A DNA stretch of 64,000 nucleotides from Bacteroidales bacterium (GCA_028282585.1 JANQHR010000052.1:1-64000), one strand, 5' to 3'. Shown: positions 3,186-8,124, numbered from the stretch's first letter. Notes: a model not told the origin generated them from the sequence alone. Numbers and translations are program-made.

Positions 3186-5984
3186 ATGCCAAACAAAGAA
3201 CAATTTATTCAGATAAAAGGTGCAAAAGTCCACAATTTAAAGAACATCAGCATTAACATAGCCCGCAACAAACTTGTTGTTATAACCGGTGTATCGGGCT
3301 CGGGGAAATCATCCCTGGCGTTTGATACCATTTACGCAGAAGGCCAAAGAAGATACGTAGAAAGCTTATCGTCTTATGCTCGACAATTTCTGGGTAAAAT
3401 AAACAAACCGGATGTTGAATTTATCCATGGTATACCGCCCGCTATTGCCATTGAACAAAAAGTTAATACAAGAAACCCACGATCTACCGTTGGTACTTCT
3501 ACCGAAGTTTACGACTATTTGAAACTTTTGTTTGCCCGAATTGGAAAAACATATTCTCCTATCTCAAATAAAATTGTAAAGAGACACTTAGTAACTGATG
3601 TTGTAAACTACATTATAAACTATCCTGAAAAAACTAAAATGTTAATTCTTTCTCCTTTTGAAAAGAAGAATGGTAAATCTTTTGGCGAATATTTAGAACA
3701 ACTTCAAAACGCAGGTGTTTCAAGAATTGAACAGAACTTTAATATCTTTAAAATATCAGAATTATTTCAAGACCAATCTCCTGTAAATGAGAAAGAAGCG
3801 ATTAATTTAGTTGTTGATCGTATCAGTGTTTCAAACAATGAAGATTCATTAAGCCGATTTGCAGATTCAGTTCAAACTGCCTTTTCTGAAAGTAATGGCT
3901 ACTGTATAATAAAGGTATTTGATGATAAGAAAACGTCTGAAAAATTTTCTAATAAATTTGAAGCAGATGGAATTGAATTTGAAGAGCCAAATGTTCATAC
4001 ATTTAGTTTTAATAATCCTATGGGTGCATGTCCGCGTTGCGAAGGATATGGTAAAATAATTGGTATTGATGAAGATCTAGTAGTTCCAAATAAAGGTTTA
4101 TCAATTTACGAAGAAGCTATTGCTTGCTGGAGAGGAGAAAAAATGCAAGAATGGAAAAATCGATTGGTATATAATGCTGATAAATTTAACTTTCCGATAC
4201 ATAAACCATATTTCGATTTAACCAATGAACAAAAGCAATTGCTTTGGACCGGAAATAAATATTTCTGGGGGTTAAATGCCTTTTTTGAGCATCTCGAAGA
4301 AAAGAAATATAAAATTCAGTATCGAGTTATGTTGTCCAGATATCGGGGGAAAACAACCTGTCCGGATTGTAGAGGAACCCGGTTAAAGAAAGAAGCATCT
4401 TATGTTAAAATAGGAAAAAAATCATTACAAGATTTGGTATTACTGCCAATTGATGAGCTACAAGGATTTTTCAAAAAGCTTAAACTGACTGATTACGAAA
4501 AAGATGTTTCAAAACGAATTCTGATTGAAATAAATAGCCGTTTAGATTTTTTAATGAATGTTGGATTAGGTTATTTAACTTTAAATCGTTTATCTTCTAC
4601 TCTATCCGGAGGAGAATCCCAAAGAATCAACTTAGCAACTTCATTAGGAAGTAGTTTGGTAGGGTCGTTATATATTCTGGATGAACCAAGTATTGGACTC
4701 CACCCCAGAGACAATGATCGATTGATAAAAGTTTTAAAACAACTTCAAAATATTGGTAATACCGTAATTGTTGTTGAACATGATGAAGATATAATCAGAT
4801 CAGCTGATGAAATTATTGATATTGGCCCTTTTGCTGGCCGCTTAGGTGGTGAAATAATTTTTCAAGGTGATAAAAATCAAATTATTGAAAGCAATAATAG
4901 CCTAACGGCAAAGTATTTAACCGGAAAGGAAATAATTTCAATTCCAAAACAACGAAGAAAATGGAATAATTATATTGAATTGTTAGGTGCAAGAGAAAAC
5001 AACTTAAAAAATGTAAATGTTAAATTTCCTCTTAACGTTTTAACTGTAATAACAGGAGTTAGTGGTTCAGGTAAATCATCATTGGTTAAAAATATACTCT
5101 CTCCTGCTTTAAGTAAAATTTTATTAGGTACAGGCGAAAAAACAGGCAAATACGATAAACTTAATGGTGATATAAATGGTTTAAATAGCATTGAATTTGT
5201 TGATCAAAATCCAATAGGCAAATCTTCGCGTTCAAATCCTGTAACATACCTTAAAGCATATGATGAAATAAGAAAACTTTATGCTGCCCAACAATTATCT
5301 AAAATAAATAATTTTAAAGCGTCGCATTATTCTTTTAATATAGATGGAGGTCGATGTGAAGAGTGCCAGGGTGAAGGAGTTATTAAAGTAGAAATGCAAT
5401 TTATGGCTGATGTTACGTTGATATGTGATCATTGCCACGGAAGAAGGTTCAAGGACGAGATTTTAGAGGTAAAGTATCGCAAAAAGAATATTTATGATGT
5501 TCTTGAAATGACTGTAAATGAAGCTATCGAATTTTTTAGTGAAGGTAAAGGGTCAACAGAAAAAAGAATTGTTGATAAACTTTCTCCATTAGCTGAAGTG
5601 GGATTAGGTTATATTAAACTTGGACAATCGTCCAGTACACTAAGTGGTGGGGAAAGCCAGCGAGTAAAGCTTGCATCTTTCCTAAGTAAGGAGAATGCGA
5701 AACAATCTACTTTATTTATTTTTGATGAGCCAACCACAGGTCTGCACTTCCATGATATAAAAAAGCTCTTGGAAGCATTTAATGCTTTAATTGCAAGAGG
5801 CAATTCCGTTTTAATTATAGAACATAATCTTGAGGTTATTAAGTCTGCTGATTGGATCATTGATCTCGGCCCTGAAGGAGGAAAACAAGGTGGAAAAATT
5901 GTTTTCGAAGGAACTCCGGAAGAATTAATTAAAGTTAAAGAATCTTATACAGGGCAATATTTAATTGAAAAATTAAGAAGCTAA
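3186..5984 (+). CDS. uvrA: Excinuclease ABC subunit A
   Basis: Two [11 protein letters not shown]alker A motifs, LSGGESQR signatures, Zn fingers, [10 protein letters not shown]-terminus. Confidence 0.97.
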
Positions 5985-6135
5985 GGTTGTTATCAGGTTT
6001 TATCTGCAATATTTTAATAAAGTTTGTAATAAGATTTATATAACCGATATACGTGCTGTAAATAAAAATACCACATTTATATATATAATTAGCACAAAAT
6101 CTGTGTATTTTTGATATATTTGTTATAATGACAAG
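5878..6135 (+). repeat. Copy 1 of a ~255-bp direct repeat (uvrA 3' end plus downstream region)
   Basis: Aligns to 7871-8124; the last 42 bp are identical. Confidence 0.92.
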
Positions 6136-6141
6136 TTGCAG
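6094..6141 (+). promoter_or_regulatory. Candidate array promoter and attI-like entry site
   Basis: TATTTTTG (6106) and TATATTTG (6115) match the Bacteroidota -7 element TAnnTTTG; G|TT follows at 6135, where the two repeat copies diverge. Confidence 0.55.
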
Positions 6142-6326
6142 TGCGTTCCCCGCATGTGCACTTACAGGATAGATGCAAAATTAAAAAATCTATCCTTCCA
6201 GACCTAACTAATTTCTGTTGCTAGCAGAAAAGCGGGTAGCCAAAATGAATTAAAAATGATAAATTTTGACAAACATAAACAACAGATAATCAATAATATT
6301 GTTTTACATAGCGTTAATTCTGACAA

Positions 6327-6974
6327 ATGATAACAATTCAAATAAAAAGCTTTTTTAAAAAAGTATCTAGTATAAACTTAAAAACAATTAAAATGAAACA
6401 AGAATTTAGTTTAGTAACGATTGTGTTAGCATTATTATTTTTTGTGTCTTGCAATAATAACAATGTTAAACAAGAAACGCAGAATGTTGAAACTACACCA
6501 ACAGAAACAATCTCGGAACAGGAAGTTTTGGAAGCTCAGAAAATTTGGGGAGAGGGAATTGTTCGCATAGGTAAAGTGTATACAGAGGAAGGTGATTATA
6601 AGACCGAAGCGAAAAACCATATTGCTGATTTATACGGTTATAATTTAGGGCCAGTATTATTTAAGCCAACACTAGCGGCAGATAAGCAGTTCCGAACAAC
6701 AAAAGAAGGGGCACTTTCTTATTTTGTAGGACACGATGATAATTTCCCAGAAGACCACGGTTTTGCAATAAAGCCCTGGAGTGCTGTAAGATGGGAAAGT
6801 ATCGGGATAAAAACAGAGGGGAACATGGCTATTGCTATGGGAAATTATTTTTTCACACCTGCCGAAGGAGGTGAAGATGTTAAAGTTGAATATACTTTTG
6901 CTTATACTAAAGACGATAAAGGAGTATTGCGCATAATTATGCATGGTTCACACCTTCCATATTCTCCAAAATAA
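6327..6974 (+). CDS. COG4337-like (iota-class carbonic anhydrase / NTF2-like fold) lipoprotein (likely start 6393)
   Basis: Lipobox FVSC; VLFKPT, GALSYFVG, GFAIKPW, KVEYTF; C-terminal MHGSHLPY, a variant of HHSSxPY. Confidence 0.7.
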   Translation: MITIQIKSFFKKVSSINLKTIKMKQEFSLVTIVLALLFFVSCNNNNVKQETQNVETTPTETISEQEVLEAQKIWGEGIVRIGKVYTEEGDYKTEAKNHIADLYGYNLGPVLFKPTLAADKQFRTTKEGALSYFVGHDDNFPEDHGFAIKPWSAVRWESIGIKTEGNMAIAMGNYFFTPAEGGEDVKVEYTFAYTKDDKGVLRIIMHGSHLPYSPK

Positions 6975-7055
6975 GTTAATATTGATTTTTAAATCTATAT
7001 GTAAATTTCGATTATGTATTAAATTATATTTTCAAGGTGAAAAAATAAACTTCAC

Positions 7056-7186
7056 CACAACACTTTGTATAAGTAATGGCAGAAGATGGGGTAAATATTA
7101 AGCTTTGTATCCTGTTCAAACTGCTACCCAGTTTAACAAGAAAGTACTACACAATCTGCCATTACTCATACAATTTGCCGTTGTGC
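7056..7186 (+). repeat. Intact attC-like hairpin
   Basis: CACAAC..TTGTATAAGTAATGGCAGA / TCTGCCATTACTCATACAA..GTTGTG. Confidence 0.85.
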
Positions 7187-7215
7187 ACCATGTCAAAAAC
7201 CAATAAATCAATAAA

Positions 7216-7779
7216 ATGAATATTGAAATAAGACCTTTGACAAAAGATTTAAAAGACGATTATTTGTTTTTCTTTGATAATATGATTTTCAAAGAAAATC
7301 CTGATTGGTCAATTTGTTATTGTTACGACTATCACTTCGTTGGAGATGTAGCAAAATGTACTCGTGAATCTAATCGTTCTTCGGTAATAAATCTTATCAA
7401 TGAAAATAAGCTGACAGGTTATTTGGTCTTTGAAAATGATAAACCCATCGGATGGTGTAATGCAAATAACAGATTAAATTACCAAAGATTACTAAAAGAC
7501 TATGATTTGATTGATAATCCTGATGATAAAGTTTGTTCAATTGTTTGTTTTTTAATACATCCCGATTATAGAAGACAAGGGATTGCTCAAAAGATTCTTG
7601 AAAAAATTATTACGGATTATTCAAATAAGGACTATGATTATATTGAAGCGTATCCGAAAAAAGGAGAATTATCGTGCGAGAGAAATTTCAAAGGGCCTTT
7701 GGAATTATATAAAAGACATGATTTCAAGATAAATAAAGAGTATGATGATTATTATGTAATGAGAAAAAAATTAAAATAA
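7216..7779 (+). CDS. GNAT family N-acetyltransferase
   Basis: CFLIHPDYRRQGIA motif A, IEAYP. Confidence 0.9.
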   Translation: MNIEIRPLTKDLKDDYLFFFDNMIFKENPDWSICYCYDYHFVGDVAKCTRESNRSSVINLINENKLTGYLVFENDKPIGWCNANNRLNYQRLLKDYDLIDNPDDKVCSIVCFLIHPDYRRQGIAQKILEKIITDYSNKDYDYIEAYPKKGELSCERNFKGPLELYKRHDFKINKEYDDYYVMRKKLK

Positions 7780-7783
7780 TTAC

Positions 7784-7870
7784 GGTGCACACATTTTGGA
7801 TATTTCATAGCAGGTATGTAACGGCATGACACTTCCATCCCCCGGTCATGTCGCCCTACAGTTGACAGGA
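7784..7870 (+). repeat. Truncated attC-like element
   Basis: GGTGCACAC is complementary to GTTGTGCACC at 7180; the element is cut off by the uvrA-tail duplicate. Confidence 0.55.
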
Positions 7871-8124
7871 GAGGAAAACAAGGTGGAAAAATTGTTTTCG
7901 AAAGCACTCCGGAAGAATTAAAAAAGTTAAAGAATCCGATACAAGATATTATTTGATTGAAAAATTAAGAAGCTAAGATTGCTATAAGATTTTATCTGCA
8001 ATATTTAATAAAATTCGTAATAAGATTTATATAACCGAAATATGTGATTTATATAAAAATATTTCACTGATAACTGTTTACTACAAAATCTGTGTATTTT
8101 TGATATATTTGTTATAATGACAAG
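7871..8124 (+). repeat. Copy 2 of the uvrA-tail / attI-like direct repeat (coding part decayed)
   Basis: GAGGAAAACAAGGTGGAAAAATTGTTTTCG...AAAATTAAGAAGCTAAG...TTGTTATAATGACAAG. Confidence 0.92.

Follow-up and report, generated by a model that had tools for sequence, protein, structure and literature searches.

A 64,000-nt stretch of DNA from a Bacteroidales bacterium (GCA_028282585.1, JANQHR010000052.1:1-64000) was found to carry, starting in the end of its uvrA gene, a direct repeat whose two copies, at 5878-6135 and 7871-8124, close with the same 42 nt. This stretch, hereafter the window, is the first 64 kb of the 132-kb contig C116; positions are counted from its first letter, and features lie on the + strand unless the - strand is given. 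The repeat is probably the doubled head of an old, recombinase-less, integron-like cassette array lying between uvrA and its terminator. The ancestral order would have been that of G034, a genome of the same genus: uvrA, a convergent gene for a 274-aa Xer-like tyrosine recombinase, a 97-nt platform ending ACAAG/TT (the slash marks the proposed crossover), and then cassettes. The recombinase would have joined circular cassettes to the platform at G/TT by way of an attC-like palindrome, the R'' box of which would complement the cassette's own first bases, and a TAnnTTTG element 13 nt before the crossover would have driven the first cassette. In the window the recombinase gene has been deleted save for about 20 codons, after which the uvrA tail, the gene remnant and the platform were doubled. 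Copy 1 completes a working uvrA and heads cassettes 1 and 2, and copy 2 is a frameshifted pseudo-tail heading cassettes A and B.

Structure of the repeat

The uvrA gene (932 aa, 3186-5984; Pfam UvrA_inter, UvrA_DNA-bind and ABC_tran) has orthologues in 34 of 37 genomes of the genus, and its final 107 nt (5878-5984) open copy 1. The repeat was recovered by a repeat search and aligned with MAFFT. Over the 258 columns of the global alignment the copies differed at 35 (86.4% identity), and the first 32 and last 42 columns were identical. The 42-mer at 6094-6135 matched that at 8083-8124 at all 42 positions, and it and three 20-mers taken from it occurred at only these two places in the genome (4,888,182 bp, 173 contigs). 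The differences were distributed as 11/107 in the uvrA tail, 24/109 in the middle and 0/42 in the core. When 35 differences were placed at random in 200,000 trials, a terminal identical run of at least 42 had a P of 0.0012 and such a run anywhere a P of 0.043, while both identical ends together were never obtained (0/200,000). Beyond the shared G, copy 1 reads TTGCAGTG and copy 2 reads CCGTATGC. A sequence-only reading of the window had described a repeat with an identical 42-nt core, decay of the uvrA-derived part in copy 2, an end of similarity at this G with unlike cargo after each copy, and two TAnnTTTG elements in the core. All four observations were reproduced: the decay is a frameshift from a 1-nt deletion, read from the sequence, and the elements lie at 6106-6113 and 6115-6122 and again at 8095-8102 and 8104-8111.

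Copy 1 consists of the functional uvrA tail, a remnant of the first ~20 codons of a recombinase gene (5987-6039, - strand) and a 96-nt attI-like platform (6040-6135) filling the space between the former start codon and the crossover G, a spacing like that at loci retaining the recombinase gene. The crossover would fall between 6135 and 6136. The remnant abuts the uvrA stop codon, the deletion of the remaining gene reaching 2 nt past that stop, and its own start codon is altered from ATG to ATA (6037-6039). The platform was not predicted to fold as DNA (z +0.20). Copy 2 comprises the frameshifted uvrA pseudo-tail (7871-7976), the recombinase remnant with its former start codon at 8028-8030, and a platform that ends in the second 42-mer; it is followed by G/CC, whereas 24 of 25 platforms read G/TT.

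The remnant was identified by DNA alignment, its protein-level match being too short for significance. The 151 nt past the uvrA stop had a full-length match in one other genome of the genus, G034, where uvrA is followed after 5 nt by the convergent 274-aa tyrosine recombinase gene, the platform and the first cassette. About 145-147 nt of G034 align to window positions 5991-6135 at 69% identity, and this G034 stretch contains the first codons of the recombinase and a 96-nt spacer ending ...GTTATAGCAACAAG/TTAGCAAAC, beyond which comes a lipoprotein open reading frame (ORF). Because the homologous stretch starts inside the first codons of the intact gene, 5987-6039 was assigned as a recombinase gene stub. 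As judged from these alignments, the window platform is a relic whose recombinase gene was deleted in both copies.

Platforms and recombinase genes at other loci

The sequence-only reading had taken the core for an entry site and had proposed a search for it between a tyrosine recombinase gene and a first cassette. This is where the motif lies in G034, in five of the six loci of a class-wide genome sample and in all five evaluable metagenome contigs with a 68-69% identical recombinase, each with the order gene, platform ending ACAAG/TT, cargo; a sixth contig, L084, starts inside the recombinase gene and was left out. Altogether, 11 of the 12 loci with a relative of the 274-aa type (at least 51% identity) had ...ACAAG/TT 97-142 nt from the gene start, namely G034, G785, G722, G693, two loci in G816, L082, L083, L085, L086 and L087. 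Every inspected locus at 59% identity or more consisted of the gene, 97-142 nt ending A(A/C)ACAAG/TT, and cargo. At four metagenome loci with 44-46% identity (L088-L091), no such platform was seen by eye.

Homologous loci had also been expected to diverge at the shared G, and loci sharing a platform did split exactly there. The gene and the full 97 nt are common to G722 and G785, which part right after the G (TTGGCAGTC versus TTGTGTGCA), as do metagenome contigs L083 versus L085-L087 (TTGTGCATAA versus TTAGCAACAA). In an alignment of eight platforms including both window copies (A3), ACAAG was invariant and lay 97 nt from start codon to G. In genomes of the genus the final ~30 nt of the 42-mer recur, each time with unrelated sequence past the G. 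Over 25 platform sites, mean pairwise identity was 85% at -20 to -1, 40% at +3 to +22 and 32.5% at +23 to +42; since the sites were chosen by a pattern containing ACAAGTT, the upstream identity and the TT, which only window copy 2 lacks, are partly built in, and independent of that choice are only the drop after +2 and the preferences for a purine at +3 (25/25) and for A at +10 (23/25).

Platforms were also found standing alone. The pattern TATATTTGTTATAAYRACAAGTT had 17 exact matches among 185,579 species genomes, in 11 metagenome-assembled genomes with up to four each; ten of these genomes were labelled Bacteroidales or Bacteroidetes and one Bacteriovoracaceae. No recombinase-like ORF was seen beside the 17 sites (ORFs of at least 80 aa up to 2 kb on each side, judged by eye from their first residues). 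A same-strand ORF of at least 80 aa began within 100 nt of 11 of the 15 evaluable stand-alone platforms. Seven stand-alone platforms (L031, L036, L037, L038, L043, L044 and L045) keep the first codons of the recombinase (AAATCTGTAAT...CAT) about 100-115 nt before G/TT; such gene-less platforms could reflect either recurrent deletion with similar ends or movement of platform and gene start as a module. Two weaker platform-like sites, with four mismatches and AAG/TT before same-strand ORFs, were noted on contig C44 of the window's own genome, G000 (~27311 and 31740, - strand); the mismatches are counted against the core.

Proteins resembling the 274-aa recombinase were numerous in metagenome protein collections, with 3,472 at E of 1e-40 or below. 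Nearly all of the best 120 were about 274 aa long; these 120 came from Bacteroidales and Flavobacteriales, and their source names were XerD, site-specific integrase or tyrosine-type recombinase. Among sampled genomes, a gene of this type was present in 5 of 401 from the class, at 51-72% identity, and no relative above 48% identity was found in 401 from the order. The nearest relative in G000 is a 376-aa tyrosine recombinase on contig C169 (2004-3134, - strand; 40-41% identity), with an extra N-terminal part of about 100 aa and no platform adjoining it. About 20 of the 37 genomes of the genus have such genes (38-47% identity), often at contig ends and without a platform. When recombinases of the genus of ~300-400 aa with 35-47% identity were considered together with the 274-aa protein of G034 (25/37 genomes), a platform was seen beside only 1 of 30 loci, G034's own.

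The 274-aa protein resembles Xer recombinases by sequence. Its best NCBIfam models were the XerA/integron-integrase model (205 bits, cut-off 220) and the integron integrase TIGR02249 (184.5 bits, cut-off 265), and the XerD and XerC models scored 177 and 172 bits. Among solved structures, XerA (4a8e, 5hxy) aligned continuously at 115 bits, and IntI4 (2a3v) aligned at 113.6 bits in two pieces; the TIGR02249 match was likewise in two pieces, skipping model positions 178-237. Where IntI4 has its IntI-specific domain, its residues 172-249 (78 aa) are aligned opposite 35 aa of the query, 170-204. The shorter segment together with the continuous XerA alignment indicates that this domain is absent from the 274-aa recombinase. 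These results bear on the possibility that the platform is the attI of a true IntI, as the entry site could also be understood, and the array an ordinary cluster of attC sites without an integron integrase (CALIN) left after loss of intI. The platform, the G/TT crossover, the attC-like palindromes described below, a Cass2/GyrI-like cassette protein and the integron integrase scores themselves are all in keeping with such an origin. We nevertheless consider it very improbable, given TIGR02249 and IntI4 scores that both fall short of 265 bits, the split matches, the missing domain, and the fact that close family members are listed as ~274-aa proteins named XerD or site-specific integrase.

Cassettes and attC-like sites

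If cargo entered at G/TT by the proposed mechanism, its first bases would be expected to recur as a complement after the ORF. The first 10 nt of cargo (G, TT and 7 nt) had an exact reverse complement after the ORF at 7 of 28 sites, representing 6 distinct loci, compared with 1 of 738 cross-locus controls; with one mismatch a complement was also present in L170, L171, L172 and L173. The complementary box opens an imperfect palindrome of 50-225 nt that ends ...AACG/TT or ...ACAG/TT, where the next unit starts, and that has inner arms such as AATGTATAAAAAATAGGCGG...CCGCCTACTTTTCATATAC. G785 has two consecutive cassettes, the second with an exact 10-nt complement. As single-stranded DNA, the attC-like sites were predicted to form long bulged hairpins closed by the outer boxes (z -4.45, -3.70, -2.96 and -2.88), with loops of 8 to 170 nt; two further sites folded weakly (z -1.93 and +0.05).

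In the window, cassette 1 (6136-7180) comprises a 215-aa ORF without a Pfam family and an attC-like palindrome at 7053-7185 that ends GCCG/TT, has 31-nt arms with 81% complementarity and gave the z of -4.45; its start matches its R'' box at 7 of 10 positions. Cassette 2 (7181 to ~7864) carries a GNAT acetyltransferase gene (7216-7779, Pfam) and an R'' box at 7784-7793, which matches the start at 8/10 if the reading of the box is shifted one base rightward. Beyond this box its attC has been lost or can no longer be recognised, and 7780-7870 does not fold (z +0.47). Cassette A (8125-8472) has no ORF, starts with CCGTATGC and ends GAGACG/TT with its G at 8472; start and R'' agree at 7/10, and from the R'' box at 8277-8285 (GCATACAAC) an original start of TTGTATGC can be deduced. 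Cassette B (8473 to ~9535) contains a radical-SAM ORF (8498-9475, Pfam) and an R'' box at 9479-9488 matching its start at 9/10 (null P = 0.003). Only the left arm of its attC remains, of which 9486-9534 is 94% identical to 7059-7107 in the cassette 1 site. Random pairs of GTT and AAC boxes gave at least 7 matches in 10.7% of cases, at least 8 in 2.3% and at least 9 in 0.3%; by this comparison of bases, cassette B is the sole window cassette that is convincing from its start-to-R'' match alone. Independent support for the cassette borders came from contigs of sequencing runs X1 and X2 carrying variants of the GNAT gene, the similarity of which breaks off at 7182/7193 and 7785/7791.

Further attC-like sites lie near 12703-12838, 14010-14120, 14600-14705, 22002-22110, 24100-24215 and 28435-28555, several with mutated AAC or GTT boxes. 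The repeated left halves form two families, 12702-12796/21995-22089 (72%) and the 7059-7107/9486-9534 pair described above. A fixed-arm pattern and an arm alignment anchored on AAC and GTT each found only 1-3 sites in the window, where the sites are too diverged for both. The mutated G/TT and AAC boxes across the island give the array an inactive, decaying look, in line with the loss of its recombinase gene.

In both the window and G034 the element TATATTTG precedes the G by 13 nt. The same holds for the 17 motif-selected sites, whose search pattern contains it, and for G785, G722 and G693, which were chosen independently of the motif; two metagenome platforms of alignment A3 lack it at that position. 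A sigma-70-type scan was uninformative (15 sites versus 14.9 expected). We infer that the platform may contain a promoter. That the core might be conserved as a promoter or operator only, moving as a regulatory module or serving as a binding site for a shared regulator and taking no part in recombination, is in our view unlikely. TAnnTTTG, the near-palindrome TTGTTATAACAA, the same-strand ORFs after most stand-alone platforms and the absence of the 274-aa gene from most platform-bearing genomes would all suit a regulatory element, but such an element leaves unexplained the complement to the cargo start (7/28 against 1/738), the fixed 97-nt spacing to the recombinase gene in several families and the differences between orthologous loci exactly from G/TT onward.

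Extent and content of the island

A full-length, convergent gene, here gene X, lies within 1.5 kb after uvrA with a terminator hairpin between them at 24 of 30 loci of the genus. In the window the hairpin (30642-30683) and gene X (30700-31146, 148 aa, - strand), which directly follows uvrA in relatives, form the right border of the island at 30642-31146, and gene X stands 24.7 kb farther from uvrA. Since gene X and the terminator usually adjoin uvrA, 5985 to ~30650 is a 24.7-kb insertion between uvrA and its terminator. This island (5985-30650), a decayed cassette array, reaches 22 kb past copy 2, and 20 of its 22 main ORFs are on the + strand and have unrelated functions. It occupies the same site in the window genome and in G034 and is absent from the species between them.

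A Pfam scan covered 60 of the 73 window ORFs of at least 90 aa, leaving out 12 that overlap longer ORFs and one at the window end. Island functions recognised in this way were GNAT, radical-SAM, an APH-family kinase, an AraC/GyrI-Cass2 regulator, an amine oxidase, a PAF-acetylhydrolase-like hydrolase, a CAAX protease, a MutS-related protein and two beta-lactamase-family proteins. No tyrosine recombinase was present among the 60 scanned ORFs, and a genome-wide PF00589 search found none on the 132-kb contig. With at least six attC-like sites, judged by eye and by folding, and no integrase gene on its contig, the island resembles a CALIN; unlike in a CALIN, a platform and a recombinase gene stub persist here, twice. 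An Rfam search found nothing in the repeat and gave five sub-threshold matches, all on a terminator at 9592-9706, and ARAGORN reported no tRNA in window positions 1-32000.

Some other features of the region were noted. Cassette-like units carry an APH-family phosphotransferase gene (11842-12696), followed by the attC-like site at 12703-12838, and two PF00144 beta-lactamase-family proteins (25603-26805 and 26906-28429). After the truncated attC of cassette B, 9535-9616 resembles a tRNA 3' half in having a GTTCGAATC T-loop and an acceptor end; it is single copy in the genome, was not called by ARAGORN and may be what is left of another element's att site. Inside the island, 9697-11122 (- strand) codes for an RNHCP-domain protein and a GTPase of the rsgA family; the genome has four rsgA paralogues, the island copy and three others that are 34-37% identical to it. 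In G010, the second-closest relative, a single gene for an oxidoreductase-like protein of ~330 aa lies between uvrA and the terminator with gene X (locus L127), preceded by TTTTTGTTATCG...ACTAAG/TT, perhaps a diverged platform.

Origin of the second copy

Each of the two uvrA tails has the other as its closest match (96/106 identical positions), the best other species reaching 88/106 against copy 1 and 79/105 against copy 2, so the doubling took place within the lineage or between close relatives. As both copies share the end of the deletion and the change from ATG to ATA, the duplication postdates loss of the recombinase gene. The sequence-only reading had envisaged a platform independently loaded twice, a view that draws no support from the joint between cassette 2 and copy 2, which lacks a clean attC end, or from the G/CC after copy 2. 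This joint has an R'' box, the unfoldable stretch noted above and an R'-like ACAG/TT 0-10 nt before the homology starts.

Two routes to the present arrangement can be proposed. In what we take to be the most likely one, a segment from a close relative would have entered by homology in uvrA and been joined irregularly 107 nt ahead of the stop codon of the resident gene; the incoming segment would have consisted of the uvrA end, the remnant, the platform, cassette 1 and cassette 2. About as good would be a route in which 1,993 bp were first duplicated in tandem and the second cassette pair was then excised between platform 2 and the cassette 2 attC. Neither route accounts for identical ends of 32 nt and 42 nt around a middle that differs at ~20%. 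Only the final 21-30 nt of the core are kept in other platforms, and gene conversion is a possible cause of the identical ends.

The earlier reading had offered, as its alternative, duplication of the attL/attR type, in which a mobile element with its own integrase enters the 3' end of uvrA and brings a replacement tail. The window shares with such elements a doubled gene tail with an intact proximal and a decayed distal copy, and an island found at one site in the window genome and G034 and not in the species between would suit such an entry. The alternative fails, however, on the content of the repeat and its surroundings: the 1.7 kb between the copies hold only the 215-aa ORF and the GNAT gene and no integrase, the repeat is more than a simple att core, since it includes a promoter-like platform and the recombinase remnant, and there is no third copy of the tail at the far end of the island. 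We regard it as improbable.

The copies might also be alleles of one locus placed in series, through an assembly artefact or a two-strain chimera. Identical ends around a diverged middle resemble a de Bruijn bubble, unitigs are interrupted at both identical stretches (30 nt and 42 nt), and the uvrA contig of G014 stops exactly where the repeat starts. Unitigs were built from 31-mers of run X1, which is probably from the source sample of the genome and hence not independent. Those at 7531-7900, 8095-8600, 5400-5907, 5880-6123 and 6106-6866 matched the window with zero differences at a depth of 12-16. The unitig 7531-7900 spans the GNAT gene, 7784-7870 and the tail, and by joining cassette 2 to the first 30 nt of copy 2 it places a second uvrA tail downstream of cassette 2 in the reads; another unitig spans the 42-mer into cassette A. 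With each piece used once, two tails and two platforms lie on one molecule; otherwise a 2-kb circle would have to exist at chromosomal copy number. An artefact therefore has little probability, and the order of the two diverged middle segments is that of the original assembly, as the 31-mer unitigs do not link the middles to their flanks. Runs X2 and X3 gave partial coverage only, of GNAT variants and cassette 1. In G014, the closest relative (uvrA protein 97% identical), the uvrA contig (L140, start of C39) ends at the first bases of the repeat, which hints that a repeat is present there too; the uvrA tail is not in the G014 assembly, where only an unrelated platform copy was found.

Discussion

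The head of the array in the window and its counterparts elsewhere share with integrons a recombinase gene divergent from the cassette array, an adjoining non-palindromic platform with crossover at G/TT, and cassettes terminated by imperfect palindromes whose outer boxes are AAC...GTT and whose inner stem is bulged. They share as well cassette starts that complement their own R'' box, less clearly so in the window, and ORFs that are mostly promoterless and in one orientation. The site beside the recombinase gene with cassettes at G/TT was seen at 11 of the 12 recombinase-linked loci; in the window the gene is deleted. Unlike integrons, these loci have a 274-aa enzyme with the architecture of archaeal XerA and no IntI additional domain (I2 helix region), the attC-like sites have inner arms whose sequence is kept from family to family (AATGTATAAAAAATAG...CTACTTTTCATATAC), genomes may hold several platforms, mostly gene-less, and the host clade is Bacteroidia. 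On these grounds the system would be an integron analogue with a Xer-type enzyme rather than a member of the IntI family. A Xer/dif site has ~28 bp, with two 11-nt recombinase-binding arms and a 6-8 bp centre, and is acted on by the housekeeping XerC/D. From Xer/dif, pdif modules and integrative mobile elements exploiting Xer (IMEX), the present loci differ in their 97-nt platform, in their palindromes of 50-225 nt and in a recombinase gene that lies beside its site and not as a housekeeping xer gene; no 28-bp dif-like site was evident in the sites of the system, although no dedicated test was made.

Several observations weigh against a recombination platform heading a cassette array. The start-to-R'' matches of the window cassettes are weak (7, 8, 7 and 9 of 10; P for at least 7 = 0.107), and a strict chain search in the window (11-mers, at most one mismatch) gave two matches, one of them on a conserved arm and not on an R'' box. 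TAnnTTTG is common, with 92 matches in the window versus 109 expected from shuffles. Other platforms do not share the opening 12-20 nt of the 42-mer; an identity of 42/42 is more than selection for a recombination site would by itself account for, and no clean model accommodates the join of cassette 2 to copy 2. The intact 274-aa gene was found in only 1 of 56 genomes of the family, G497 (51% identity) has no ACAAG/TT motif, and some genomes, for example G006, have several platforms and no recombinase relative at E of 1e-40 or below. To these is added the built-in part of the upstream identity among the 25 sites.

The IntI-specific domain (I2 helix) serves as a selection criterion in integron surveys (PMC2426708; PMC8138268; PMC9024848). 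According to one classification, integrons cannot function without the additional domain, although an "integron-like" subgroup does not conserve it fully (PMC8138268), and elsewhere gain of the I2 helix is said to have allowed single-strand recombination (PMC7790495). For Bacteroidetes, the IntegronFinder 2 paper gives In0 elements as the only earlier finds and adds one complete integron in Salinibacter (PMC9024848). Our literature search, which covered sources other than subscription journals, found no published integron-like system in Bacteroidia that lacks I2.

For the window itself the outcome is modest, a decayed array whose head stands twice, with a cargo that includes acetyltransferase, phosphotransferase (APH family) and beta-lactamase-family genes. 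Beyond the window, we see an even chance that Bacteroidia harbor a widespread, undescribed integron-like class of gene-capture systems with a 274-aa XerA-like recombinase without I2, the domain regarded as the decisive novelty of integron integrases, in which platforms would outlive the gene and could multiply, staying on as promoter-bearing landing pads in several places on the chromosome; the uvrA-linked pair would be one such fossil. The combination ...TATATTTGNNNNAACAACAAG/TTR, 97 nt from a gene for a 274-aa Xer-like protein, offers a handle for finding cassette arrays in marine Bacteroidia. A recombinase without the I2 domain that is tied to attI-like and attC-like sites bears on the origin of integrons. 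As surveys select integrases by the IntI-specific domain, they would by design miss such systems, and this may be one reason why Bacteroidetes look almost integron-free.

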